From IMG/VR virus record IMGVR_UViG_3300013426_000021, positions 31,669 through 63,668 of that record: 32,000 nucleotides of DNA; one strand, given 5' to 3'. The notes beneath the pieces were generated by a model. That model saw only the letters and a program-made list of their open reading frames with translations, did no database searches and was not told the DNA's origin. The position numbers and the translations under genes are program-made. This DNA comes from a virus. This document shows, one piece after another, positions 3,643 through 31,937 of the stretch; positions within the stretch are counted from its first letter, which is position 1; every line of letters begins with the position of its first letter.

Positions 3643-4842
3643 TTAATTTTTCAATTCGACGAGATACTTGACGGTCGTCTGGCATTCCTGATAGACGATG
3701 ATCTCGTCGTTGCGGAGCATTGCCCCTTCATGCGCATGCAGACAGTTCGCGCCAGGACATGCGGCCTGAAGTTTTTCATAGTCGAAGGAGTTATAAGCGC
3801 CGGAGAAAGAATAAACGTCGTACGGTTTGCCGTAGGCGACCTCATACAGTCCCATAAAAGCGCTGTTCTCACTGCCTTTAGCCCAATAAGAACCGGAAAG
3901 GGAAGTGTAACCAAGCGACTTGCGCGCCTTTGTGGCGAAATAGATACCGTAACCGAACATCTTGCCGGTGATAACCGCGTTGGTGGGCTTGAGAACAAGG
4001 CCGCCGGTGAGGATGGACCACCAGTTTTCATTGCGGCTGCCATGCCAGAGCAGCTTGGTAGCGATATGAGCAGGCTCGACATAATTATCGAACGCCTGCT
4101 GGGTACGAAGGTTCCGAACCCGCCACGCCTGACGGAATTTATCGGCGCAGGAACCGAGGCAGGACTTGATTTTAATGATGTCTTCGGGCGTTGCTTCTTC
4201 AAAGACAAGACCGTTCGCCTCGAGGACGGTCTGCTGTACTGGAGCAGTATCGACAACTTTTACCGGCTGCGGGACATAGACCTGACCGCGCATAATATCC
4301 AGCAGATCCTGTTCTCGGCGGATAATATCGCCGAACTGGTCGACCGAAGTGGCCAAATGAGAGCGGACGCTGGCCATGCGGCGGGGAATAATGCCGAACA
4401 ATTCCGACAACAGCAGATTAAAATCATTCAAGCTGCGTTTATCAACCAGCGCGTTCAGCATGAGCTGCGCTTCATCGACCATCGCCATAGTGACCTTGTT
4501 GGACGAGATGGTGTAGTTCTCCGCAACCGCCTGCCGCGCCATTTCTCTCAGCCGGCGGACAATTTCAGCGATGGGTTTCTGCAGGATCGGCCGATAATCA
4601 TCTGTAACAGGCTGTACTTCAATCAGGTCTCGCACAAGCCATGTACGATCAACATACCCTTTGGAAAGCTTTTCGTTGTATTTCTTCTCCCAGTCCCGGA
4701 GGGAGTAAGTCCGACGCTGCGGGCTTGCCCCCACACGACCGTAAGCCGCTTCCCAGACGGAGCCCATCGGGGTCATATCATAATATTTATTATTGTTGGC
4801 GTCGGCGGATATTTTCACCAGCCGCCGCGGTGTGTATTCCAT
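3643..4842 (-). CDS. WGR-domain poly/mono(ADP-ribose) polymerase (PARP1-3-like H-Y-E catalytic domain)
   Basis: N-terminus NNKYYDMTPMGSVWEAAYGRVGAS...KGY matches the WGR domain. A helical middle region follows. The catalytic domain has LLWHGSRNENWWSILTGGL (His), KMFGYGIYFATKARKS (Tyr) and NDEIIVYQECQTTVKYLVELK (Glu). ATG 4842 overlaps the upstream TGA (TGATG). Confidence 0.85.
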   Translation of the reverse strand: MEYTPRRLVKISADANNNKYYDMTPMGSVWEAAYGRVGASPQRRTYSLRDWEKKYNEKLSKGYVDRTWLVRDLIEVQPVTDDYRPILQKPIAEIVRRLREMARQAVAENYTISSNKVTMAMVDEAQLMLNALVDKRSLNDFNLLLSELFGIIPRRMASVRSHLATSVDQFGDIIRREQDLLDIMRGQVYVPQPVKVVDTAPVQQTVLEANGLVFEEATPEDIIKIKSCLGSCADKFRQAWRVRNLRTQQAFDNYVEPAHIATKLLWHGSRNENWWSILTGGLVLKPTNAVITGKMFGYGIYFATKARKSLGYTSLSGSYWAKGSENSAFMGLYEVAYGKPYDVYSFSGAYNSFDYEKLQAACPGANCLHAHEGAMLRNDEIIVYQECQTTVKYLVELKN

Positions 4843-5297
4843 CACAGCGTATACACCACGATATCGACGCGCGTATCATCAAACGTTTCGAGGATCAGCT
4901 CACGAACATCATCCCAGTTCAAACGATCGAGCCCGCAGCCGATGCGCGGCATAGCGAGACGGGTGATTCCACGCTCCTGAATATGCCGGCGGAGATCGAA
5001 CAGAGCGGCTCCAAGCGTTTCAAGCGTGGGTTTTTCATAGCACCGTTCTTTGGTGACGAGGTTATAAACATCCAGCACGGGGAGCGCGCAAGGCCCCCAG
5101 CCTTCAAAATCATACTCGCCGTACATCTGGCGAAGCTTTTCCTTCATATCATACTGGGTATCAATCTGCCTGGCGACGCCAGCGCCCAGAGCAAAATCCG
5201 CGCTGATGCAATGCACAAGCGCCCAGCCGCGGGGCGCGCTAAGCAGATCGCCTTTGATTTCAGAGAATGTCAATTTCGGATTACAGGTTTCGCACAT
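4842..5297 (-). CDS. TARG1/OARD1-like macrodomain ADP-ribosyl hydrolase
   Basis: 151 aa. KGDLL...LVHCISADFALGAGVA, LVTKERCYEKPTLETL, MPRIGCGLDRLNWDDV and C-terminal IVVYTL are nearly collinear with my recollection of human TARG1. GGAGG RBS. Confidence 0.85.
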   Translation of the reverse strand: MCETCNPKLTFSEIKGDLLSAPRGWALVHCISADFALGAGVARQIDTQYDMKEKLRQMYGEYDFEGWGPCALPVLDVYNLVTKERCYEKPTLETLGAALFDLRRHIQERGITRLAMPRIGCGLDRLNWDDVRELILETFDDTRVDIVVYTL

Positions 5298-5312
5298 ATC
5301 AATTTCCTCCTG

Positions 5313-6623
5313 TCAATAATAGCTGACTTCTTTGCCGGGCTCACGCAGATCTTTGAAAACCGGAAAACGGAGCGACTCGACGCCCGATTTATCCTGCGTG
5401 ACCTCAAAATACTGCACCGTAACGACCCGACCAATAAATTGGGACGGATTCGCCCAGACCTCGCGGCGGAAAGAATCCGTCATGCCGGAGCCGACACGGA
5501 CGGGATTGCCCTTAAAATCCACCACCAATGCGCCGAGCGTGCCCTTGAAGCGGCCGCCGCCTTCTTCGACACCGGTAATTGCAAGATCGCAATCCTGCAT
5601 GGCTTTGACCTTAAGCAAATTCCGGGTTCGCTTGAACTCATAGGGCGCGTCGAGCAGGTTGATCATCACGCCTTCATGACTGAGGCCGCGCTGAATTTCA
5701 AGATGGCGAAGGATTTCATTTACATCGCCGCCGACATAGAGGACGGGAACGGCCTTGATATGCTCGACGTCATGGACGATCGCTTCCAGCTCCTGCCGGC
5801 GAAGATAATACGGCGTGGTGCAGTCGTGGTTGAGAAAAACGCTGTAATCAACGATATCGAACGCGTTGAACACAATGCCGCGCTTTTCACCATCCCGGCG
5901 GACAATCTGCACGGTGTGCTTATACTGCTCTTTGCTGGGGATATTCTCCCTGTCTGCGATGAGCAGCTCGCCGTCAAGCACAAAGCCAAGCGCGCCGCCG
6001 TCAGTAAGCGTGAGAATATCTTCTTCCAATTCGACAAGCCCTTCGATAGGCTGACCCTGCCGGGTATAGAAACGGGGCGGCTTGCCCTTCTCGGCCACGC
6101 ACTGACAGCGAACGCCGTCCAGCTTTTCGGTAAGCGCGAACCGTCTGCCTTCAACCGCTTCGGGATGCTCGAAATATTTCTCGGCCAGCATACATTCATA
6201 CACGGGAATAACCGTGCGGCCAAGAACCTTGTTGACCGTCTTAGCAGAAATACCGAGCGGGATATCCTTACAGAGGAATCGAACAAGGAACTCGCGCAAG
6301 GCCGGGTCGGCTATATTGGCGAGCGTATACTGCAGTCTGGCGAGGACCTGCATATCTGCGGCGCGCAGGCCGGACAAATATTCGCACATGGTAAAAAGAT
6401 CATCCCAATATGAAGCCAGCGTGATATTCAAATTTTTCTCAAGCGACCTGCGCTGAACATGAAAGACGACCATAGGATCGAGCAGAAGCTTCAGGGCGGA
6501 AAACGCCGCAGGACTCTGGGCGCAGGCCAGAATTTCCGGCTCTTTCGCCTTGCCTCGCGCGGTTTGAATCGCATCGAAGCAAGGCCTGATTTCGTGAAGC
6601 TGAGATTCAAGAGTGAAAGACAT
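5313..6623 (-). CDS. lig: ATP-dependent DNA ligase
   Basis: Motif I EKLDGVR, plus LDGELL, FNAFDI, EGVMIN and LLKVK, with an OB-fold-like C-terminus. Start set at MSFTLES (ATG 6623, AAAGGAA RBS). The 100-codon upstream extension in the ORF track has no coding character. Confidence 0.85.
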   Translation of the reverse strand: MSFTLESQLHEIRPCFDAIQTARGKAKEPEILACAQSPAAFSALKLLLDPMVVFHVQRRSLEKNLNITLASYWDDLFTMCEYLSGLRAADMQVLARLQYTLANIADPALREFLVRFLCKDIPLGISAKTVNKVLGRTVIPVYECMLAEKYFEHPEAVEGRRFALTEKLDGVRCQCVAEKGKPPRFYTRQGQPIEGLVELEEDILTLTDGGALGFVLDGELLIADRENIPSKEQYKHTVQIVRRDGEKRGIVFNAFDIVDYSVFLNHDCTTPYYLRRQELEAIVHDVEHIKAVPVLYVGGDVNEILRHLEIQRGLSHEGVMINLLDAPYEFKRTRNLLKVKAMQDCDLAITGVEEGGGRFKGTLGALVVDFKGNPVRVGSGMTDSFRREVWANPSQFIGRVVTVQYFEVTQDKSGVESLRFPVFKDLREPGKEVSYY

Positions 6624-16523: not shown

Positions 16524-16596
16524 AAATTTTGTTTTTCAATAATAAAGGGAACATTTTTGGCACCGTTTTTTCACTTTCCGAAAATTTTCTTTGAAA
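16524..16596 (-). promoter_or_regulatory. promoter-like element X (paralogue of 29577..29649)
   Basis: On the minus strand: GTGAAAAAAC-N8-AAATGTTCCCTTTATTAT, ending 34 nt before the TTG start. Y has the same 18-mer and 10-mer with identical 8-nt spacing. Confidence 0.5.
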
Positions 16597-16607
16597 AAAT
16601 TTTTATT

Positions 16608-17504
16608 TCACCACGGCAGCGTGTTCACCGCCCTCGCAAGCTGCTCGGGATGGGAGTGATCATATCGGTTTGTAACGCGCAGGGAGGAATGATTGGCGCA
16701 GTCCCTCGCCACGCCAGCGCCGTTGCGCTTTTCGACCTCGGAGATGAAGGTATGCCGCAGGCAATGGGGGCCCGTGGCAAGGCCGAGCTGTTTCTGTTTG
16801 AAGGCAAGCGCGCCATAGACCGTCTTCCGGTTCATCGGCTGGCCATGCGTGGAGAGGAAGAGCGGGCGGGAATGATCGGCCGCGTCGGGGCGGGTTTGAA
16901 GATACGCGTCGAGCACGTCGTAGAACGAATCCTTGACGTAAACATCCTCCCAGTTGCCGCCTTTGCGTTTGCAGTAGATTTTGCCGCGCTCGCCGTCGAG
17001 CACGTCGCCGATAGTCAGCGCGCACAGCTCGCTCACGCGCATGCCGGATTCCAGAATAAGCGTGCAGATGGCGCGATCGCGCAGCTTATTACGGCCGGGC
17101 ATATCGCCGAGCAGCTTGCGTGTCTGCTGGACGGTCATGTACTTTTCCTTGCGCTCCCACTTTGGGACGGCCTTCTCATTAGGGAGCTTATGCGTGGTCA
17201 GCACGCCGCTGAGATCTTCCGCCGTGGCCTGCGCAACCTTCCACGCCCAGCGGAAGAACGGGTTGAGCATGCAAACGTAATTGTTGCGCGTGGTCATCTT
17301 GCAGCGGGCGGCAAGCTGGTTATAATATTCATCCAGCACGGCGGGCGTAAGGCCGGAGAGTTCGTTTTCCCCGACCTGCACGCCATGATCCCGCTCCAGC
17401 TGCCGGAGGATGCGATTGAGAACCTCGGCGCAATGTGCCGCTGAAACATCCGAAGCGCCGCCGGCCTTATAGCTCGCGGCATAGCGTTCAACCAGCCTGT
17501 ACAT
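16608..17504 (-). CDS. int: tyrosine recombinase / phage integrase
   Basis: ESGMRVSELCALTIGDV (Arg), HCLRHTFISEV (HxxR), HSSLRVTNRYDH (His..Tyr). Start at MYRLVERY (ATG 17504, GGAGGG RBS). Confidence 0.85.
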   Translation of the reverse strand: MYRLVERYAASYKAGGASDVSAAHCAEVLNRILRQLERDHGVQVGENELSGLTPAVLDEYYNQLAARCKMTTRNNYVCMLNPFFRWAWKVAQATAEDLSGVLTTHKLPNEKAVPKWERKEKYMTVQQTRKLLGDMPGRNKLRDRAICTLILESGMRVSELCALTIGDVLDGERGKIYCKRKGGNWEDVYVKDSFYDVLDAYLQTRPDAADHSRPLFLSTHGQPMNRKTVYGALAFKQKQLGLATGPHCLRHTFISEVEKRNGAGVARDCANHSSLRVTNRYDHSHPEQLARAVNTLPW

Positions 17505-17709
17505 TTCCCTGCTCCCTCCTTCTGCGCGCGGCGACGATCTGTTTATATTCCTCAACGACCTCATTCAGCCGGGGCGTGCGCAGATAGCGCCAGTAACGCG
17601 TGCCGAACTCGTCCTTATAGGAATTCTCATAACGGATATCGTGGACGTGGATGAAGGTTTCGAGGGCGAAGTTGTTCGTTTCAAAGATTTCGGGATTCTG
17701 ATTCATCAT
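17488..17709 (-). CDS. small protein, possibly DUF5659-like / recombination directionality candidate
   Basis: AGGAGG RBS. 73 aa, immediately upstream of and overlapping int. Family assignment from memory only. Confidence 0.5.
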   Translation of the reverse strand: MMNQNPEIFETNNFALETFIHVHDIRYENSYKDEFGTRYWRYLRTPRLNEVVEEYKQIVAARRRREQGNVQAG

Positions 17710-17982: not shown

Positions 17983-18016
17983 GAGGGAATGCGAACGAAC
18001 GTTCTTATTTATTTAA

Positions 18017-18039
18017 CGCCGCGTCAAAAATTCGCGGCG
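18017..18039 (-). terminator. candidate terminator after the GP88-like gene
   Basis: CGCCGCG/CGCGGCG 7-bp stem followed on the minus strand by an A/T-rich tract (TTAAATAAATAA). The T-run is imperfect. Confidence 0.4.
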
Positions 18040-18066
18040 AGGACGGGCTATTTTTGACAGTTTTGC

Positions 18067-18681
18067 TTAGTGTTTATGGAAGACGACGGACTGGCCGCCG
18101 GCAAGATCCCAGCATTTGGCGCAGGCGGAACAATTGCCGCTGCAGGACATGGCGTCAGCGGGAACACGGGTTTCGCGCCCATCCTGCATAAAGGCGACGG
18201 GATAATAACCCAGCAATGCACTAGGCATTTCGACGCCCGGCCACGCGCTGAGCACGAGACGGAAATTTTCGGGGAGGGTTTCGCGATCGATTGCGGCGAA
18301 GAGGTCGTACCGCTTAGTGAAGGCGAGAAACTTGGTGCCGGGATGAGAACGGATAACGCGCAACCACATATCGAGATATTCGCGGGAGAAGAAATCGCCG
18401 GAGACATGAATACGGAACATGCGCGGGGCGTTAGGGGAATCAAAATACCAGGCGAGATAGGATTCAAGGGCGGGGAGATCCTCTTGAGCGAGGGAGAAGT
18501 TTTCCGCATAAGCGTTGCGGACGCTGGGGCGGAGGCGTTCCAGCTTGCGGGCATAGCAGCCTTCACAGAAGCAGGTTTTGCAGGCGGAAGAGGAACAGGA
18601 CGCGCCGGAAGGCAAAGAAAAAGACGGGATCGCTCCCATCTTCGTGTTGCCGGCGCTGATATGCACGGGAAGTTTATTCAT
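18067..18681 (-). CDS. Cys-rich protein, GP88-like (function unknown)
   Basis: FSLPSGASCSSSACKTCFCEGCYARK near the N-terminus and CSGNCSACAKCW near the C-terminus. Family name from memory, low certainty. Confidence 0.45.
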   Translation of the reverse strand: MNKLPVHISAGNTKMGAIPSFSLPSGASCSSSACKTCFCEGCYARKLERLRPSVRNAYAENFSLAQEDLPALESYLAWYFDSPNAPRMFRIHVSGDFFSREYLDMWLRVIRSHPGTKFLAFTKRYDLFAAIDRETLPENFRLVLSAWPGVEMPSALLGYYPVAFMQDGRETRVPADAMSCSGNCSACAKCWDLAGGQSVVFHKH

Positions 18682-18764
18682 TTGTCAGGACTCCTTATGG
18701 GTTGAAATAAGGGAAGAGGGAACCTCCTTTCTTTTTGAACTGAGGGCAAGCCCCGGAGGGGCTG

Positions 18765-19670
18765 TCAGGAGAACATATGCGACGAAACGATGTCAGAAAG
18801 AACGGAAACAGCAAGATCATAGGGAACAGGTGTAAAAAGAAGTGGTATGGTTATTTTTTCGTAATCTTCACGATAAGCCGCGTTTGCGATAATTTCCTTT
18901 ATGACAGAGATAGCGCTTCCTCGAACGGCGGCGGAGGGGCATACAGTGTGCGGCGCACGTTCCATTCTTACCTGTTCTACAAGCGTGTAAAACGTATCGT
19001 CAAACCGTATGAGCGGTAAAATCTTATAAAGATCATAAAGATGCCGGGAATGCTCGGCTACCCGGCCGGTAAGATAGTAATCACACAGAGCGAATGTCTT
19101 ATCGACAAAGGTTCTTTCTATCGCCTGTACCTTCACTGGAAATGAACCCGCCCCATGCTGACAGACGATGTTCTCAAAACCGTTTCCCAGCAAATAATCG
19201 CTGACAAAACTGGAAACCGGCTTTGTCTCACACGGAAAAGAACGCATGGAAACCATCGTTTCCACCATGAGCCTGCGGCGAAGAAAATCATCTTCAATAA
19301 CAGAAGAATAATCTGCAAGGTAACGATTAAAATCTCTGCGGCTGCGGGTTTCTCCAAGATTAGTGGGAATGGCACTGATTTTCGCAAAGGCAGACACAAT
19401 ATTACGTTTCAACTGTTTCCGTTGGCCCTCCGAGAGGCGGGCATCGCAATCGATATTCAAGTCGATATCCTCTGAAAAACGATCGATTACATGATAGCAT
19501 TTGGAGAGCGAGGTGCCACCCTTAAACACAGCGTTAGGCTGCGACAGAAAAAACGCACGCAGGTATTCCGTCACATAGTAATCCTTTTCAATAATGCTGG
19601 GCAGAATCGCTTTCGCTTCGGCTGTTCGAAGCACCAGCTGCGCAAAGAACTCTCTATCCTCATGTAGCAT
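18765..19670 (-). CDS. abiEii: AbiEii/DUF1814 nucleotidyltransferase toxin (type IV TA / abortive infection)
   Basis: FKGGTSLSKCYHVIDRFSEDIDL is the hallmark AbiEii NTase motif. 301 aa. Overlaps the upstream abiEi by 11 nt. Confidence 0.85.
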   Translation of the reverse strand: MLHEDREFFAQLVLRTAEAKAILPSIIEKDYYVTEYLRAFFLSQPNAVFKGGTSLSKCYHVIDRFSEDIDLNIDCDARLSEGQRKQLKRNIVSAFAKISAIPTNLGETRSRRDFNRYLADYSSVIEDDFLRRRLMVETMVSMRSFPCETKPVSSFVSDYLLGNGFENIVCQHGAGSFPVKVQAIERTFVDKTFALCDYYLTGRVAEHSRHLYDLYKILPLIRFDDTFYTLVEQVRMERAPHTVCPSAAVRGSAISVIKEIIANAAYREDYEKITIPLLFTPVPYDLAVSVLSDIVSSHMFS

Positions 19671-20280
19671 CGTAAATCACCCCGCTTTCAACAAGAGTTC
19701 GAATCGGCTTATCGGGGAAAAAGCCGCAAAGCTGAGATATATTTTCCTTTGTAACACCGTTTGCTTTTATAAATTTGCGCAGCGCATCCCGACGTTCTTG
19801 CGATAATGCGTTGGGCGGCAAAGCATCCAGCACCTCAAAGAGCATCATCGTCGAAACATTTTTCGAAGTGACGCGCGCCGGAGGCCGTTTCAGCACAACT
19901 TGCTGCCCACCGACGGAAACAATTCTGGAACGGGAAGAAACGGCGTTTGTAAAGATTTCAACGCCATTTGGCATCTGTGTCGAGAGCCCTAAGTTATTTA
20001 TGAGCGTCGCGCCGGCGTAAAATCCGATTACCGCTCCATTCCGTTTGATATATTTTCTTTCGATGACATCGCGCGGATTCAGAACGCTGGGGCCGAAAAT
20101 CGTCTCGGAGGGGATGTAATACACCCCTTTTTGGAAACGTTTTAGTTTCCCGCACTTGCAAAGAGCAGCAAGCTGGCTACTGACCCATGGACGGGAATAA
20201 TTTTCAAATGATACGTCATCGAAAAAAATTGGAACGTTCTTCCCGTATTTCTTCAAAAGATAATCATAAAACGCTTCCAT
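19660..20280 (-). CDS. abiEi: AbiEi-type antitoxin/transcriptional regulator
   Basis: 206 aa, directly upstream of abiEii. N-terminal wHTH-like region (LAALCKCGKLKRFQKGVYYIP). Own consensus promoter. Confidence 0.75.
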   Translation of the reverse strand: MEAFYDYLLKKYGKNVPIFFDDVSFENYSRPWVSSQLAALCKCGKLKRFQKGVYYIPSETIFGPSVLNPRDVIERKYIKRNGAVIGFYAGATLINNLGLSTQMPNGVEIFTNAVSSRSRIVSVGGQQVVLKRPPARVTSKNVSTMMLFEVLDALPPNALSQERRDALRKFIKANGVTKENISQLCGFFPDKPIRTLVESGVIYDAT

Positions 20281-20312
20281 GCAGATCCTCCTTCCGCTTG
20301 GTTTCCTTAAAA

Positions 20313-20341
20313 ATTATAATACATTTTCTGCGGAGCGTCAA
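20313..20341 (-). promoter_or_regulatory. near-consensus sigma-A promoter of abiE
   Basis: On the minus strand: TTGACG (20341-20336), 17-nt spacer, TATAAT (20318-20313), about 30 nt before the GGAGG RBS. Confidence 0.65.
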
Positions 20342-20352
20342 CTTTATTATAA

Positions 20353-20622
20353 TTACTTCATTTTATTCAGAATATTCTCGTCCGGCGCGTGTTCCATCAT
20401 AATCATGGCGTACATGGTGCCGTCCGGCTTGCGGAAGGCGGTAATGGTATCGGGCGGGAGGATATCTTTCAGCTCTGAATTCCCGCTGGCGGGAAGGGCT
20501 TTGCCGTCGCTGTCCTCGTTGTCATAGAGGAGCTTGAGGCGGGAGGCGATGGCCATGGGGTCAGTATCCCAGCAGAGAAGTTTGTTGCGGTTGCCGGTTG
20601 CGCGAATGAGATAATAATACAT
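20353..20622 (-). CDS. hypothetical 89-aa protein, third gene of the ATPase operon
   Basis: GAAGGAG RBS, 15 nt after the upstream stop. No recognisable motif. Confidence 0.55.
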   Translation of the reverse strand: MYYYLIRATGNRNKLLCWDTDPMAIASRLKLLYDNEDSDGKALPASGNSELKDILPPDTITAFRKPDGTMYAMIMMEHAPDENILNKMK

Positions 20623-20637
20623 GGGGCGCTCCTTCTG

Positions 20638-21156
20638 TTAAGTTGAAGTTGATTTTTCGCGGCAGATCATGCCGTATTCTTTTGCGAAGTTTTCATTCAT
20701 GACCGCCACGTCGATATTCCACATCGCGGTGGTTTTATATAGGCACCGTTTTAACTCGTTCTGTATCGGCGCAAGCCATTCCGGACGATGATTGGGGATA
20801 ATGAGTATAAATTTCATCGGCAAGGTTTTTATATCGGCATGCCGGATAGCACCGCCAAGGCACGGTTCAGCGCGCCTCTCCGTATAAACTGCCAGGAAAA
20901 GCTGAAGCGAATCGCAGAACTTCGAGACGACTTTCGTTATCCATGTCTCAAATTGTCCCGGACTTCCATTCTGCCTTGGAGAAGAGGACTTCACTTCGAC
21001 AAAGCAGAGCTGATTTTTCCGGTTCATAAAAATAAATTCAACGGTTGAAAAATTTTTGCCGAGACGATTATATGAACCGGATTTCTCGATATAATAAAAG
21101 CGTGCTTCGTCGAACGGACTGAACGTGATGCCAGACTCACGAACTGACAGACTCAT
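20638..21156 (-). CDS. small PD-(D/E)xK-like (restriction-endonuclease fold) candidate effector
   Basis: 172 aa. STVEFIFMNRKNQLCFVEVKSSSP fits the acidic residue ... hhhExK pattern. Translationally coupled (6-nt gap) to the ATPase. Confidence 0.5.
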   Translation of the reverse strand: MSLSVRESGITFSPFDEARFYYIEKSGSYNRLGKNFSTVEFIFMNRKNQLCFVEVKSSSPRQNGSPGQFETWITKVVSKFCDSLQLFLAVYTERRAEPCLGGAIRHADIKTLPMKFILIIPNHRPEWLAPIQNELKRCLYKTTAMWNIDVAVMNENFAKEYGMICREKSTST

Positions 21157-21162
21157 AGGCGC

Positions 21163-22173
21163 TCAACCCATCGCTTTCCTGATTTCATCTTCGTACATTT
21201 GCCGGAAGGTTTCAGAAATTGCATTATGCTGGAGCGCGGCAAGAGACTTCTGCGTTTCGCAAACCACTTCCGAATCTTCCCAATAAAGCGAATGGTAAAG
21301 GATTTCGTCCTCTGCCTTGCGTTTGATTTCGAGATAATTCGTCAGGAAATAGTCGTGCGTAGAAACGAATACCTGTACCCCGTCGCGCTGCAGAGCAAGC
21401 AGCATTTCTGCGACGACGGGAATGTACCTTGGATTCAGATTCGCTTCGGGCTCATCCCAGAAAAGCACGGCTCCGTTTTCCAGCGTGCCGTTCTTTATCA
21501 GCTGCCACAGGAGAGCAAGTTTTCGAATGCCTTCCGCGACCAGACTGAACTCGATTTTTGCCTGATTGCCCGGACGGAGATAAAACCGATCCTCTTCAAG
21601 CAAAACCTTGCCCTTGGTCGCCTGATAAAGAATATCGAGATACTTCTTTCTGCTCTCCGGATCACGGCCGGTATTGATGTCAATCTTAGCCGCGCTTACC
21701 ACGTCGACATAGGTTTCATCAAACTCTACGTTGCCGACATGAACAGCAGCTTCAAAATGCCAGCCGTTGGAGAGAATTTCCTTCGCGGGAATAAAAGTAC
21801 TGTTCAGTTCTGGGAACTGACGCTCCCACCTTTCTTCGCCGCGCACATCCGCATCCCATTTTTTGGTTTGGGAAGTAATATTCATCGAGAGCTTCGCAGC
21901 GTCCGAGAAGATGCTGACAGACCCCGTCTTGATGTTTTTCTTGCGGCTGATTAAGCGGTGGATGCAGGCACCGTCGGGCATAAAGACCTTTACGACTTTC
22001 TGCGCGAAAGAAACATCATGCCTCACCGCTCTGCAGGCGCTATACAGCAACTTCATGATATGCGTTTTCCCAACGCCGTTTTCGCCGATAAAAACGTTTA
22101 TCCCCTTGGAAAGCGGCAAATCAAGAGAACTGAAGACCGTGATATTATTTAACTGAATTTTGGTAATCGCCAA
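21163..22173 (-). CDS. ABC/SMC-like AAA_15/21-type ATPase (defence-system-type)
   Basis: Walker A GENGVGKT, signature-like SLVAEGIRKL, Walker B VLFWDEPEANLNP, H-loop VSTHD. N-terminal ITKIQLNNITVFS is typical of this family. Confidence 0.8.
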   Translation of the reverse strand: MAITKIQLNNITVFSSLDLPLSKGINVFIGENGVGKTHIMKLLYSACRAVRHDVSFAQKVVKVFMPDGACIHRLISRKKNIKTGSVSIFSDAAKLSMNITSQTKKWDADVRGEERWERQFPELNSTFIPAKEILSNGWHFEAAVHVGNVEFDETYVDVVSAAKIDINTGRDPESRKKYLDILYQATKGKVLLEEDRFYLRPGNQAKIEFSLVAEGIRKLALLWQLIKNGTLENGAVLFWDEPEANLNPRYIPVVAEMLLALQRDGVQVFVSTHDYFLTNYLEIKRKAEDEILYHSLYWEDSEVVCETQKSLAALQHNAISETFRQMYEDEIRKAMG

Positions 22174-22286
22174 TGTGCGTTACTCCCTTCCGGCGGCCTG
22201 CAAAGCGCCCATTGTGTTTGCTCCGTTACCAAACGCGGCGGAAGGCAAACCTGTTGTATTTATCATAGCATATGTCGGGGCAAACA

Positions 22287-22613
22287 TCAATATGAGCCGC
22301 TGCGGCGGCAATCAGGTTTTAGCCGTTCCTCCAATTCCTTCAGTCGTTTTTCAAGAGCGATTCGTTTCTCAATTTCCAGCTCCATACAGCGTTCATGGTA
22401 TTCATACGGAACGAAGCCGGCGCGGACGGAGGCCCTGTAATGCGCGCCGAGCGCAGTTTCATCCGGCGGGGAATCCCAGCCGCAATAGTTGCAGTGATAG
22501 CAATAACCGCTCCGACCATATTCGGAATAGCCCAGCGGACGCAGGGACATCGCTTCGCCGCAGCCGGGGCAGAGGATTTTTCGGGTTCCATTCAGCTGGT
22601 CACCTCCTTTCAA
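22287..22613 (-). CDS. zinc-ribbon protein with C-terminal coiled coil
   Basis: CPGCGE...CYHCNYCGW, then EIEKRIALEKRLKELEERL. Start uncertain: TTG 22613, or a rare CTG after the AAAGGAGGTG RBS. Confidence 0.55.
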   Translation of the reverse strand: MKGGDQLNGTRKILCPGCGEAMSLRPLGYSEYGRSGYCYHCNYCGWDSPPDETALGAHYRASVRAGFVPYEYHERCMELEIEKRIALEKRLKELEERLKPDCRRSGSY

Positions 22614-22826
22614 TCAGCCGATGATCAGATCTTCATTAGCGCGGGCAAGATATTCTTCAAGGAATTCCTCGTTGGAGCAGGGAGCGACGGCGGCGTGCGT
22701 ACGTTCGCGGGTTTCGTCGTCCATCGCCGCGACGACAGCGCCCCAGAGGTTCTGCCTGGCAATTTCGAGGAATGCTTCGCAGACAGACAGGAAAGTGTGA
22801 CCGTTATCCAAGCTGATTTGTTTCAT
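22614..22826 (-). CDS. hypothetical 70-aa protein
   Basis: Start at MKQISLDNG (ATG 22826, AAGGAGG RBS, ATGA overlap with the upstream stop). Confidence 0.55.
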   Translation of the reverse strand: MKQISLDNGHTFLSVCEAFLEIARQNLWGAVVAAMDDETRERTHAAVAPCSNEEFLEEYLARANEDLIIG

Positions 22827-23185
22827 TTTTCCTCCTTCGGCGGTTCGGGCATAGGCATCCAGTGGGTGACATAGCCGGCATAACGCCGCCAAACTCCGTC
22901 GATAGTCCAATCTTGCGCTACGATGCAGCCAAACCCATCGATATCTGCCGCGACAAGACAAGCGTCAGAACAAGTAAAACCAATGCCGGGCGTGGGGCCA
23001 TAATGTTTTTCGGGCGGCAGCCTGTCCTTGACGCTGATCCAGCTCCGCGCGTCCTGCTCAAGCATATCGGCGGCAAATTCGAGCACCTCTTCGACAAAAG
23101 CGTCCTCTACATCTCGCCCGTCAAACTGGTGGATAAACTGCCGCAACAACCTTATAACCTTTTCACGCGTCATTTGCATGTTCAT
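22823..23185 (-). CDS. DUF551-like phage protein
   Basis: WISVKDRLPPEK...YVTHWMPMPEPPKE matches the DUF551 signature as I recall it. Confidence 0.6.
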   Translation of the reverse strand: MNMQMTREKVIRLLRQFIHQFDGRDVEDAFVEEVLEFAADMLEQDARSWISVKDRLPPEKHYGPTPGIGFTCSDACLVAADIDGFGCIVAQDWTIDGVWRRYAGYVTHWMPMPEPPKEEK

Positions 23186-23471
23186 CGCGCAGCCCCTTTA
23201 CCATATCCTTCACGGCTTTGGTGTTCCGCAGCTTTTCGGCCAGCAACGACGCGGTCGCCGCCACAATTTCCGCCTTATGGTCTTCAAGGAATTTCTCAGT
23301 GCTATGTTCGACGAGGACTGTCAGCGCGGATTTCGGATTACGGTAGCGGTAATACTCGGCGCAGAGCGCATCCTCAATTTGACCGTAAAGCTTATCCCGG
23401 AGCGCGTTGACCACGCTCTTTTGAACAGCCTCATCCTCAAGAACAACGCCGACGGTTACAAGATGTTCCAT
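23163..23471 (-). CDS. hypothetical protein
   Basis: Start at MEHLVTV (TAATG overlap with the upstream stop). Helical composition. Confidence 0.5.
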   Translation of the reverse strand: MEHLVTVGVVLEDEAVQKSVVNALRDKLYGQIEDALCAEYYRYRNPKSALTVLVEHSTEKFLEDHKAEIVAATASLLAEKLRNTKAVKDMVKGLRDEHANDA

Positions 23472-24616
23472 TACGCGCACACCTCCTCGTTATTCTGTTC
23501 GATTCTGGGAAGGATTCCCTTCTGCTTCAGCAGGTCGTAGAGGAAGAGCCGGCCTTTCTGCGTCCAGTAGGTGTGGACGTTGCAGGCCCCGTCGTCGTTG
23601 AGATAGGTCTTGGTCTGCGTATATCCCTCCGGGGCGTACTTCTGATACAGCAGCCACACGCCGCCGCTCTTATACTGCACGCCAAGTTCGCGCAGCTTCT
23701 GGTTCATTGCCTGCGCGGAGAACCCGTAGTCCTTGGCAATCTGCACGATGGGCATGACGGACTGATTTTGCAGGATGAGATCATAGTAGCTGACCTTGGG
23801 CTGCATTTCCGCGATCTGCTGGGACTGGACGGCGTTCTGCGTGGCCAGCTGAGCGGCGCGGGCGCGTTCCTCTTTGAGATCCTGCAGAACCTTAATGAAC
23901 AGATCAGGGTTGGCGAGCAGCTCATCGGCGGCGTAAAGGCCATGCTTGCGGACGGAGGGGATAACCTCATGGGTGATCCAGCGCCGGAAGGCTTTGGCCT
24001 CAGGTTTGTTCGATTCGATAATCAAAGAGTAAAGCCCGGATTCATTAACGCACCACGCGAAAAGGGTATTATTTGCGGTGCGTATTCCTCTGAACACCCT
24101 TTTGTCTTCATCATCAATTCGTTCCATTGCCTGCGACGTGTCAGAAAGCGAAAGGATTCTGCAAGCATCCGCCGCTACAAACCATGGGTCATTGTTTTCA
24201 TCTCGGTGGACGCGAACAGAACCGAACTCTGCACTATTGTAAACCGACAGTTCAGACGAAGCGCAAACCGTTTCCTGCTGATAGATATCGTCAAGGCTCC
24301 ACCGTAGACCAAGCGCCGGGAAAACAGAAGTAGAAATCCAATTCTTGAAGCGTTTTGCAATTTCTTTTCGGCTGCCACAAACGATAACAATCAGCCCGTT
24401 TTTGTTGACAAAGTTGAGCGTCTGCTTTCCACCGGATGTTTCAATTTCATACTTCCGTTTTTCTTCATCATCAAGACGGTTGATAACGCTGGAAACATTA
24501 CCCAGACCAATACACCTACACACATCGGCGGCCACAAACCATGGTTCGCCGTTCTGCAGTACCGTTCTCACGTCCCCGAACTGTTCGTTCTTAAAAAGCT
24601 GAATCTGATTTTCCAT
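23471..24616 (-). CDS. antirepressor-type protein with two tandem Bro-N domains and a KilAC/ANT C-terminal domain
   Basis: Bro-N motifs QLFKNEQFGDVRTV...WFVAADVCRCIGL and AEFGSVRVHRD..WFVAADACRILSL. KAFRRWITHEVIPSVRKHG. C-terminal IAKDYGFSAQAMNQKLRELGV. Confidence 0.8.
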   Translation of the reverse strand: MENQIQLFKNEQFGDVRTVLQNGEPWFVAADVCRCIGLGNVSSVINRLDDEEKRKYEIETSGGKQTLNFVNKNGLIVIVCGSRKEIAKRFKNWISTSVFPALGLRWSLDDIYQQETVCASSELSVYNSAEFGSVRVHRDENNDPWFVAADACRILSLSDTSQAMERIDDEDKRVFRGIRTANNTLFAWCVNESGLYSLIIESNKPEAKAFRRWITHEVIPSVRKHGLYAADELLANPDLFIKVLQDLKEERARAAQLATQNAVQSQQIAEMQPKVSYYDLILQNQSVMPIVQIAKDYGFSAQAMNQKLRELGVQYKSGGVWLLYQKYAPEGYTQTKTYLNDDGACNVHTYWTQKGRLFLYDLLKQKGILPRIEQNNEEVCA

Positions 24617-24665
24617 CTTGAACTCCTTTCAGTTTCTGATCTGTGGTAGTAGAGAAGCCTGTCAC

Positions 24666-24788
24666 GTTTCACGGCACCCTTTTCGCCGTCGACCGTGAAA
24701 CCCGACACGCATAGAGTTAAGCAAAATTGAACCGGGTTTGTCAAATGGGCGGGCAGGATGATTATTACCACATAATTGTTAAAACAAT
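24666..24788 (-). promoter_or_regulatory. regulatory region: candidate promoter plus inverted repeats
   Basis: On the minus strand: TTGACA (24744-24739), 18-nt spacer, weak TTAACT. IR GTTTCACGG/CCGTGAAAC (24666-24674 / 24693-24701) lies in the leader. Palindrome ATTGTTaaAACAAT (24775-24788) lies upstream. Confidence 0.4.
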
Positions 24789-31551: not shown

Positions 31552-31937
31552 TATTTTCCCTCCACGTTGAATTTGATTTCGGTCGGCTCTACGGTCAGCC
31601 CGTATTCGTTGCAGCACCATTCCACCAGCTGCGGGGCGAGCTGTTCCGCATTGGCACAAGCTTCTATCGCCCGCTTCTTGGATTGGCGCGGCACTTCCAG
31701 CAGCAAATGTTTAATGCCTGAGCCGAGGAAACAACTTACCACGTGCCCATACTCATATTCCGGCGTGGCGTGCAGGTAATAGCCGCGGGGTTCGTTCTTG
31801 TAGGTGAAACAGTTGGTTCCGCCCAAATTATAGATCACGGAGAGCCGGATACGGTTGGTCTTGGCATCCACCATGCGCGCATTGCGCGCCTTACTGATAT
31901 CCACGCCCGCAACGGGCACGCAGCACTCAATTCTCAT
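31551..31937 (-). CDS. hypothetical protein
   Basis: 128 aa. The ATG overlaps the upstream stop. No motif recognised. Confidence 0.5.
   Translation of the reverse strand: MRIECCVPVAGVDISKARNARMVDAKTNRIRLSVIYNLGGTNCFTYKNEPRGYYLHATPEYEYGHVVSCFLGSGIKHLLLEVPRQSKKRAIEACANAEQLAPQLVEWCCNEYGLTVEPTEIKFNVEGK

Follow-up and report, generated by a model that had tools for sequence, protein, structure and literature searches.

A probable two-gene HEC-02 defence system carried beside AbiE in a variable region of a temperate phage

The stretch of DNA analysed here (the window) comprises 32,000 nucleotides (nt) of the IMG/VR virus record IMGVR_UViG_3300013426_000021, from position 31,669 to position 63,668 of that record, and all coordinates given below are positions within the window. 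On its minus strand, at 20638-22173, two closely coupled genes encode an ATPase of the ATP-binding cassette (ABC) type and a small protein with a PD-(D/E)xK-like core. In our estimation, with a probability of about 0.85, this pair is a two-gene HEC-02 anti-phage system, which a temperate phage carries as accessory cargo in one of its variable slots, near the integrase gene. An earlier note on this DNA had described the two genes, together with a third gene for a protein of 89 amino acids (aa), as an uncharacterised three-gene operon and possibly a new variant of the ATPase-nuclease defence systems. Its basic idea of a compact ABC-type ATPase plus PD-(D/E)xK-like defence module in low-G+C accessory DNA is supported, but the suggested novelty is not: both proteins match HEC-02 profiles of PADLOC over their full length, the pair is thus already classified as a known subtype, and a phenotype of HEC-02 has been published. 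The three open reading frames (ORFs) in question, all on the minus strand, are the following:

21163-22173, minus strand: HEC-02A, the 336-aa ATPase; TTG start, with a ribosome-binding site (GGAAGGGAG) 5' of it
20638-21156, minus strand: HEC-02B, the 172-aa protein; ATG start
20353-20622, minus strand: the 89-aa gene; a strong ribosome-binding site (GAAGGAG) 5' of its ATG

Family identity of the gene pair

HEC-02 (Hma-embedded candidate 02) was discovered inside Hma systems and is composed of an ABC ATPase and a NERD-like PD-(D/E)xK protein with a (D/E/Q)xK motif (Payne, Hughes, Fineran & Jackson, bioRxiv 10.1101/2024.01.29.577857). The system tested in that preprint was taken from Dickeya dianthicola NCPPB 3534 into Escherichia coli, where several coliphages plated orders of magnitude less efficiently in its presence, an effect that needed both genes. 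Judged by sequence, the ATPase and the 172-aa protein of the window are a member of this catalogued two-gene system. The order and sizes of the genes (an ABC ATPase of about 337 aa, then a NERD-like PD-(D/E)xK protein of about 170 aa), their close coupling and the ATPase and (D/E)...ExK motifs are all kept in the window pair.

The ATPase matches the HEC-02A profile PDLC04213 with an E-value of 9e-126 (residues 1-335 on profile positions 1-334 of 337), and it also matches the Pfam families AAA_21 (1e-19) and AAA_15 (6.7e-14). The motifs that the earlier note had read in it are present, namely Walker A (GENGVGKT, residues 30-37), a signature-like AEG (213-215), Walker B (FWDE, 238-241) and the H-loop (STH, 271-273); each of them is at least 97% conserved among 84 aligned homologues, and the key residues K36, D240/E241 and H273 are intact. 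Likewise, a coiled-coil insert is indeed absent, as is any other long insert. HEC-02A is 31% identical to its experimentally tested Dickeya counterpart (E 1e-43) and would serve the system as sensor or regulator. A further PADLOC profile, PDLC04146 (344 positions), is labelled HEC-02B and matches the ATPase, not the small protein (E 6.6e-62 in the window and 1.3e-59 in L019, another phage); this label looks like a database quirk that could mislead automated calls.

The 172-aa protein matches the HEC-02B profile PDLC04221 with an E-value of 9e-48 (residues 1-165 on profile positions 1-170 of 171). Both its distance of 6 nt from the ATPase stop to its ATG and its nuclease-like core (VEF at residues 39-41 and FVEVK at 52-56) are as first described. 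Eight residues (E7, E24, E40, E54, K56, K79, R94 and W127) are invariant in an alignment of 17 relatives, and among 75 family proteins from many phyla an acidic residue (D/E) at position 40 is found in 74, E54 in all 75, and K56 and K79 in 74 each. In the AlphaFold2 (AF2) model, of high predicted local confidence (pLDDT 92) and a predicted template modelling score (pTM) of 0.89, E40 stands just before the strand 41-44 and E54-V-K56 closes the strand 50-55, so that the modelled placement is the arrangement expected of a PD-(D/E)xK site. In Foldseek searches, all matches were weak, but the best ones were to PD-(D/E)xK nucleases: (i) against the PDB, HamA of Hachiman (8vxy), followed by EndoMS/NucS, Card1 and Mus81 (E 0.03-0.5; template modelling score, TM, about 0.27); and (ii) against BFVD, endodeoxyribonuclease I, restriction endonuclease, Mrr and VRR-NUC (best E 0.005). 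One of the 17 family members has a PDDEXK_4 match (E 0.046), and in an hhalign comparison the Dickeya and window HEC-02B proteins are colinear and their E, D/E and ExK residues coincide. Because of the motif, the weak fold evidence and the published comparison to a NERD model, HEC-02B is likely a PD-(D/E)xK (NERD-like) nuclease. Within PADLOC it matches HEC-02B profiles only, and the Pfam HNH, Toprim and DUF4435/RloB-like domains are not matched. Most relatives lack the extension that forms the C-terminal tail of HEC-02B (...CREKSTST), and in the model this tail is disordered.

The pairing of both genes is widespread in the family. Species-representative genomes were scanned with the ATPase, at least 582 stretches were found to encode relatives, and 80 loci were examined, spanning Bacillota, Bacteroidota, Verrucomicrobiota, Planctomycetota, Chloroflexota and others. 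Enough sequence 3' of the ATPase gene was available in 77 of them, and the HEC-02B family was delimited by iterated profile search. The next ORF after the ATPase belongs to this family in 74 of the 77 loci (99-190 aa, most of them 160-190 aa) and starts between -26 and +35 nt from the ATPase stop, all but one within +9 nt, a 4-nt overlap being the commonest junction; divergent B members that were sampled match other HEC-02B profiles of PADLOC. A co-directional ORF within 150 nt after the B gene occurs in 47 loci only (42 unrelated singletons, one pair and one PglZ group of five). Independent metagenomic loci, such as L021-23, L019 and the chromosomal L018, also have two genes. On these comparisons of gene content, HEC-02 consists of two genes and a third gene is not conserved.

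Regarding its neighbours, PglZ (BREX) stands directly 3' of the HEC-02 pair in five genomes (L036, L060, L065, L086 and L090), and in the metagenomic contigs L021-L023 the pair is convergent with a GajA/GajB-like pair, BrxL being also present in L021. These contexts independently reproduce the one given in the preprint, where HEC-02 is embedded in other defence systems. The window pair differs in this respect, since it lies on a temperate phage beside AbiE and not inside Hma, BREX or restriction-modification (RM) loci.

As for the mode of action, the analogy to other defence systems built on an ABC ATPase suggests that HEC-02B would be bound by HEC-02A and the nuclease thereby kept inactive. 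HEC-02A would then sense a cue of the infecting phage, which could be one of its proteins or DNA of abnormal structure, and the binding or hydrolysis of ATP would license HEC-02B to cut nucleic acid. In this way, a superinfecting phage would be halted, and the lysogen and its resident prophage would be protected (superinfection exclusion).

Several points weigh against this assignment and the function proposed for it. Only the Dickeya system represents the family experimentally, and the window subfamily, known here from its sequence, shares just the above 31% of ATPase identity with it, while the two HEC-02B proteins barely align pairwise (hhalign E 0.014); for both reasons, the window system has to be regarded as a distant member of a known, catalogued family. 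The fold matches of HEC-02B are weak (best Foldseek E 0.005-0.03, TM 0.26-0.39), a sequence search of the PDB with HEC-02B gave no match, and Pfam NERD (PF08378) was not matched by any of the 17 family members at E<=10. In the literature searched, HEC-02 is documented by one preprint only. Finally, the nuclease activity, its substrate, the trigger and the interaction between A and B are all proposed by analogy.

Other systems share the same general design. PARIS (AriA/AriB), Septu (PtuA/PtuB), Gabija (GajA/GajB) and AbiL (AbiLi/AbiLii) also rely on a nuclease effector that is partnered with an ATPase of the ABC type (AAA_15/AAA_21), and the logic of a sensor ATPase and a licensed nuclease is, by analogy, probably similar in HEC-02 and in these four. 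Nevertheless, the window effector is of the PD-(D/E)xK type, not Toprim/OLD, HNH or DUF4435, and the window ATPase, without a long insert, matches their ATPases only partially: the alignment with the AriA, PtuA, GajA, AbiLi and Old profiles is confined to the two ends that hold Walker A and Walker B/H-loop, and the HEC-02A match is stronger by more than 100 orders of magnitude than those to AriA, PtuA, GajA and AbiLi (E 1e-9 to 1e-21). Hachiman is a different case: its HamA is the best PDB fold match to HEC-02B, although a weak one (E 0.03, TM 0.26), but the partner of HEC-02B is an ABC ATPase and not the HamB helicase, and no relation was found at the sequence level.

The alternative that survives best, although we consider it improbable, is that the pair acts mainly as a toxin-antitoxin (TA) or addiction module, with the nuclease as toxin and the ATPase as antitoxin, which stabilises the prophage instead of providing sensor-effector immunity. 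Close coupling of two genes on a mobile element would suit such a module, and so would its position next to AbiE, a bona fide type IV TA/abortive infection (Abi) module; in addition, the Pfam description of AAA_21 reads 'putative AbiEii toxin, type IV TA system', and apparent toxicity has been reported for the related HEC-03 and HEC-04, plated without isopropyl thiogalactoside (IPTG) (bioRxiv 10.1101/2024.01.29.577857). However, the protection given by the Dickeya HEC-02 is phage-specific and depends on both genes, with no toxicity reported (bioRxiv 10.1101/2024.01.29.577857), and homologues are often chromosomal, beside or inside BREX or by a GajA/GajB-like pair, and not on plasmids or prophages. 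In any case, both roles are not mutually exclusive, since abortive infection is mechanistically TA-like.

The 89-aa gene and the limits of the HEC-02 unit

The three ORFs are not one functional three-gene unit, contrary to the operon first proposed. In none of the 80 other HEC-02 loci examined did tblastn find the 89-aa gene, and the profile of its protein matches none of the 47 ORFs 3' of other HEC-02 pairs, even at E<=10. Conversely, homologues occur in related (sibling) phages without HEC-02 (L009, L013-17, L104 and L107-112), that of L009 standing after an AbiL-like pair. Hence, on comparative sequence evidence, the 89-aa gene is not a component of HEC-02 but a phage-backbone gene that lies between two slots for cargo.

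It is very unlikely that the three ORFs form a genuine three-gene system, a new variant of HEC-02 that would require the 89-aa protein as a regulator, an adaptor or an antitoxin, and these comparative data have already largely refuted this reading. What speaks for it is the layout: the gene is on the same strand, 15 nt after the 172-aa ORF, has its own strong ribosome-binding site and follows HEC-02B with no terminator; it is, moreover, a real gene under purifying selection. But the homology breakpoints described below place it outside the cassette, its G+C content (0.533) is like that of the backbone, and the published HEC-02 functions with two genes. Given the 15-nt second gap and the fact that no terminator was found on the minus strand between the three ORFs, these probably share one transcript, and the 89-aa gene would be transcribed by read-through with HEC-02 while being functionally independent of it.

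The reality of the gene follows from its ratio of nonsynonymous to synonymous substitutions (dN/dS), which is 0.05-0.17 at a dS of about 0.53. It encodes a small, acidic protein whose family forms 14 clusters at 90% identity; those members with usable context are all found in one temperate-phage family. The family is otherwise rare: its profile gave 7 matches, mostly fragments, among 1.8 billion representative proteins, a scan of IMG/VR found no relatives and a scan of JGI metagenomes only three short loci. PADLOC, which identified the 172-aa protein as HEC-02B, returned no match for the 89-aa protein, nor did Pfam or PHROG. Its AF2 model (pLDDT 81) has a beta-beta-alpha-beta-beta order with a weak longin/roadblock/GAF-like resemblance (E >= 0.06) and no significant fold match. 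Two of the sibling copies are altered: that of L009 (6001-6339, P0003) has an in-frame tandem duplication of 23 residues, giving 112 aa, and that of L017 (1138-1406) is frameshifted, so that an ORF of 50 aa is called while the tblastn alignment continues in another frame.

A more speculative proposal, to which we give slim odds, starts from the position of the 89-aa gene between two slots of defence cargo and downstream of an AcrIC5-like gene (described below): its lineage-specific product could be a new factor of anti-defence or of tolerance to the own cargo and, separately, the window subfamily of HEC-02 could sense a different trigger than the Dickeya system. According to one version, the protein could let the phage bear nuclease/Abi cargo unharmed; according to the other, it could mark or organise a recombination hotspot for the exchange of cassettes.

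Cargo cassettes and the phage around them

Sibling phages are colinear with the window but differ from it at the place of HEC-02, where some have an AbiL-like pair, some two small ORFs and some no additional genes. Five arrangements can be distinguished:

Window and L001-L008: HEC-02, 89-aa gene, AbiE, GP88
L009: AbiLi-like ATPase plus Toprim/RloB-like 177-aa protein, 89-aa homologue, GP88; without AbiE
L017 and L108: two small ORFs, 89-aa gene, AbiE, GP88
L107 and L109-L112: small ORFs, 89-aa gene, GP88; both slots empty
L013-16: degraded prophage end with the 89-aa gene and a broken AbiE

The limits of both insertions were taken from blastn breakpoints. Against L009, homology stops at 22342 and restarts at 20668; against L017, L108 and L109, it stops at 22324 and restarts at 20622, that is, at the ATG of the 89-aa gene. 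Past the stop of this gene (20353), homology to L009, L107 and L109 restarts at 18696. Two non-phage HEC-02 loci (L021 and L024) are homologous to the window over 22190..20666 only, i.e., over the A and B genes. The features thus delimited, with those of the adjoining defence genes and the candidate promoter, are as follows:

about 20669-22341: HEC-02 cargo cassette, from breakpoints against sibling phages
18697-20352: AbiE cargo cassette; about 70 nt in its place in L009, L107 and L109
19660-20280: AbiEi (PADLOC 4.6e-57; Pfam DUF6088 1.4e-07)
18765-19670: AbiEii (PADLOC 6.5e-75; Pfam AbiEii 2.7e-28)
22262-22290, minus strand: weak sigma-70-like promoter candidate (TTGATG-17-TATGAT, extended TG, 9/12 consensus matches), inside the HEC-02 cassette

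From this comparison of sequences, HEC-02 and AbiE are two independent swappable cassettes that flank the 89-aa backbone gene, near the integrase. Their composition agrees with the higher AT content that had been noticed in the region: G+C is 0.47-0.48 over 18500-22000 as against 0.53-0.57 in the flanks, and, gene by gene, 0.49 in HEC-02A, 0.45 in HEC-02B and 0.46 in AbiE, with 0.53 for the window.

With respect to the borders, the breakpoints at 20668 (L009) and 20666 (chromosomal HEC-02 loci) fall within the last ten or so codons of HEC-02B (20638-20668), at its 3' end, which is why the recombination junction seems to lie inside this ORF. No convincing flanking repeats were found at the cassette borders. 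A 17-nt direct repeat (16/17 identical), ACGCGCCGGAAGGCAAA at 18600-18616 and ACGCGGCGGAAGGCAAA at 22233-22249, brackets the block of HEC-02, 89-aa gene and AbiE; one copy is in the coding region of GP88 and the other in the HEC-02 leader, both off the homology breakpoints, and the repeat may be due to chance.

In L009, the slot of HEC-02 (4257-5902 of that contig) contains a 371-aa AbiLi-like ATPase (PADLOC E 5.7e-34) and a 177-aa protein. The latter has no match in PADLOC or Pfam, and its N-terminus, MKLLIMCEGPNE, includes LIMCEGPNE, which we take to be a Toprim/RloB-like motif. This pair is considered of the AbiL type, its second gene being missed by current profiles. The possibility that the 177-aa protein is a divergent HEC-02B was ruled out (hhalign E 0.26).

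The signals for expression of HEC-02 are less evident than first thought. The promoter-like box attributed to the operon is located at 22290-22262, but it is weak, and 8 such sites exist in the region as compared to the 3.9 expected from shuffles. The leader (22174-22262), described as structured, is no more stable than shuffled sequences (-24.2 kcal/mol versus -24.7 +/- 2.9; z = 0.17) and matches no Rfam family, so a riboswitch or attenuator was ruled out. Four plus-strand ORFs antisense to the three genes (21199-21954, 21863-22156, 20788-21048 and 20279-20527) have no family matches and, in consequence, were treated as shadow ORFs.

The neighbouring pair was correctly named AbiE: it consists of an AbiEi antitoxin/regulator followed by an AbiEii nucleotidyltransferase toxin, and is placed 3' of the HEC-02 and 89-aa genes. 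Its cassette has a strong promoter-like site (TTGACG-17-TATAAT, 20341-20313, 11/12 matches). A 15-nt inverted repeat at 20312-20354 (87% complementary, with a 13-nt spacer) overlaps this site and may be an operator for AbiEi autoregulation.

The window belongs to a temperate phage. The genes around the locus include (i) an integrase (16608-17564), ribbon-helix-helix (RHH), GP88, DUF551, Bro-N/ANT antirepressor-like, DUF932, single-stranded DNA-binding (SSB), AAA_24 and DUF2828 proteins; and (ii) a Toprim-DnaB primase-helicase, a PDDEXK_1 nuclease, an ATP-dependent ligase and a peptidoglycan (PG)-binding/PASTA protein. A megablast search of the phage GenBank collection with 18000-24700 gave no match. 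That the pair serves the phage's own DNA metabolism, as an SbcCD- or RecN-like recombination or repair complex, and not defence, is hardly credible, for although it is placed among SSB, AAA_24, PDDEXK_1 nuclease, ligase and primase-helicase genes and its ATPase has weak N-terminal matches to SMC_N and SbcC-like proteins, the cassette is missing from otherwise colinear siblings and, therefore, dispensable, the coiled-coil insert is absent, defence profiles score best by more than 100 orders of magnitude, and the composition looks foreign.

Upstream of the HEC-02 cassette, by about 440 nt, a 70-aa ORF (22614-22826, minus strand) matches the anti-CRISPR family AcrIC5 of Pfam, with 30.0 bits against a gathering score of 27 (E 5.9e-07), and is conserved among the sibling phages; on this match, counter-defence and defence genes are therefore neighbours. 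Just 5' of the cassette, two minus-strand ORFs (22287-22613 and 22340-22591) overlap in different frames, and gene callers picked a product of 83 aa or 101 aa depending on the sibling contig. The longer frame has a zinc-ribbon-like CxxC...CxxC motif, and neither ORF has a family match.

At the other side, in the sibling prophages L107 (9430 onward) and L109 (9432 onward), the integrase is immediately followed by bacterial genes (histidine kinase/response regulator; AraA-like), and the homology of both prophages to the window ends at 16608, whereas in the window the phage genes AAA_24, SSB and DUF2828 come next. Since bacterial genes appear in the siblings where the window has phage genes, the phage attachment site (attP) is probably just past the integrase stop (at about 16526-16607), and the gene order of the window looks like that of the unintegrated (circular) phage.

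Significance of the locus

The main value of this analysis is one of annotation: the locus is best annotated as HEC-02 (two genes) plus AbiE, and not as a novel three-gene system. As such, it is a clean phage-borne example of HEC-02, and any member of this family that can be expressed has some experimental value.

Defence hotspots exist in prophages and satellites, for instance in P2/P4-like elements. The locus resembles them in that related temperate phages have HEC-02, an AbiL-like pair, AbiE or none at fixed backbone positions near the integrase. It differs from them in (i) the phage lineage, which is another one and comes from gut-type metagenomes; (ii) the presence of two adjacent slots split by one small conserved gene; and (iii) the AcrIC5-like gene just upstream in the window lineage. 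The residual interest lies in this two-slot hotspot and in the lineage-specific 89-aa gene. No new question is opened by the hotspot, which fits the general picture that prophages carry interchangeable defence cargo: around one small gene, these temperate phages of gut-type metagenomes exchange HEC-02, an AbiL-like pair or AbiE, or have nothing there.

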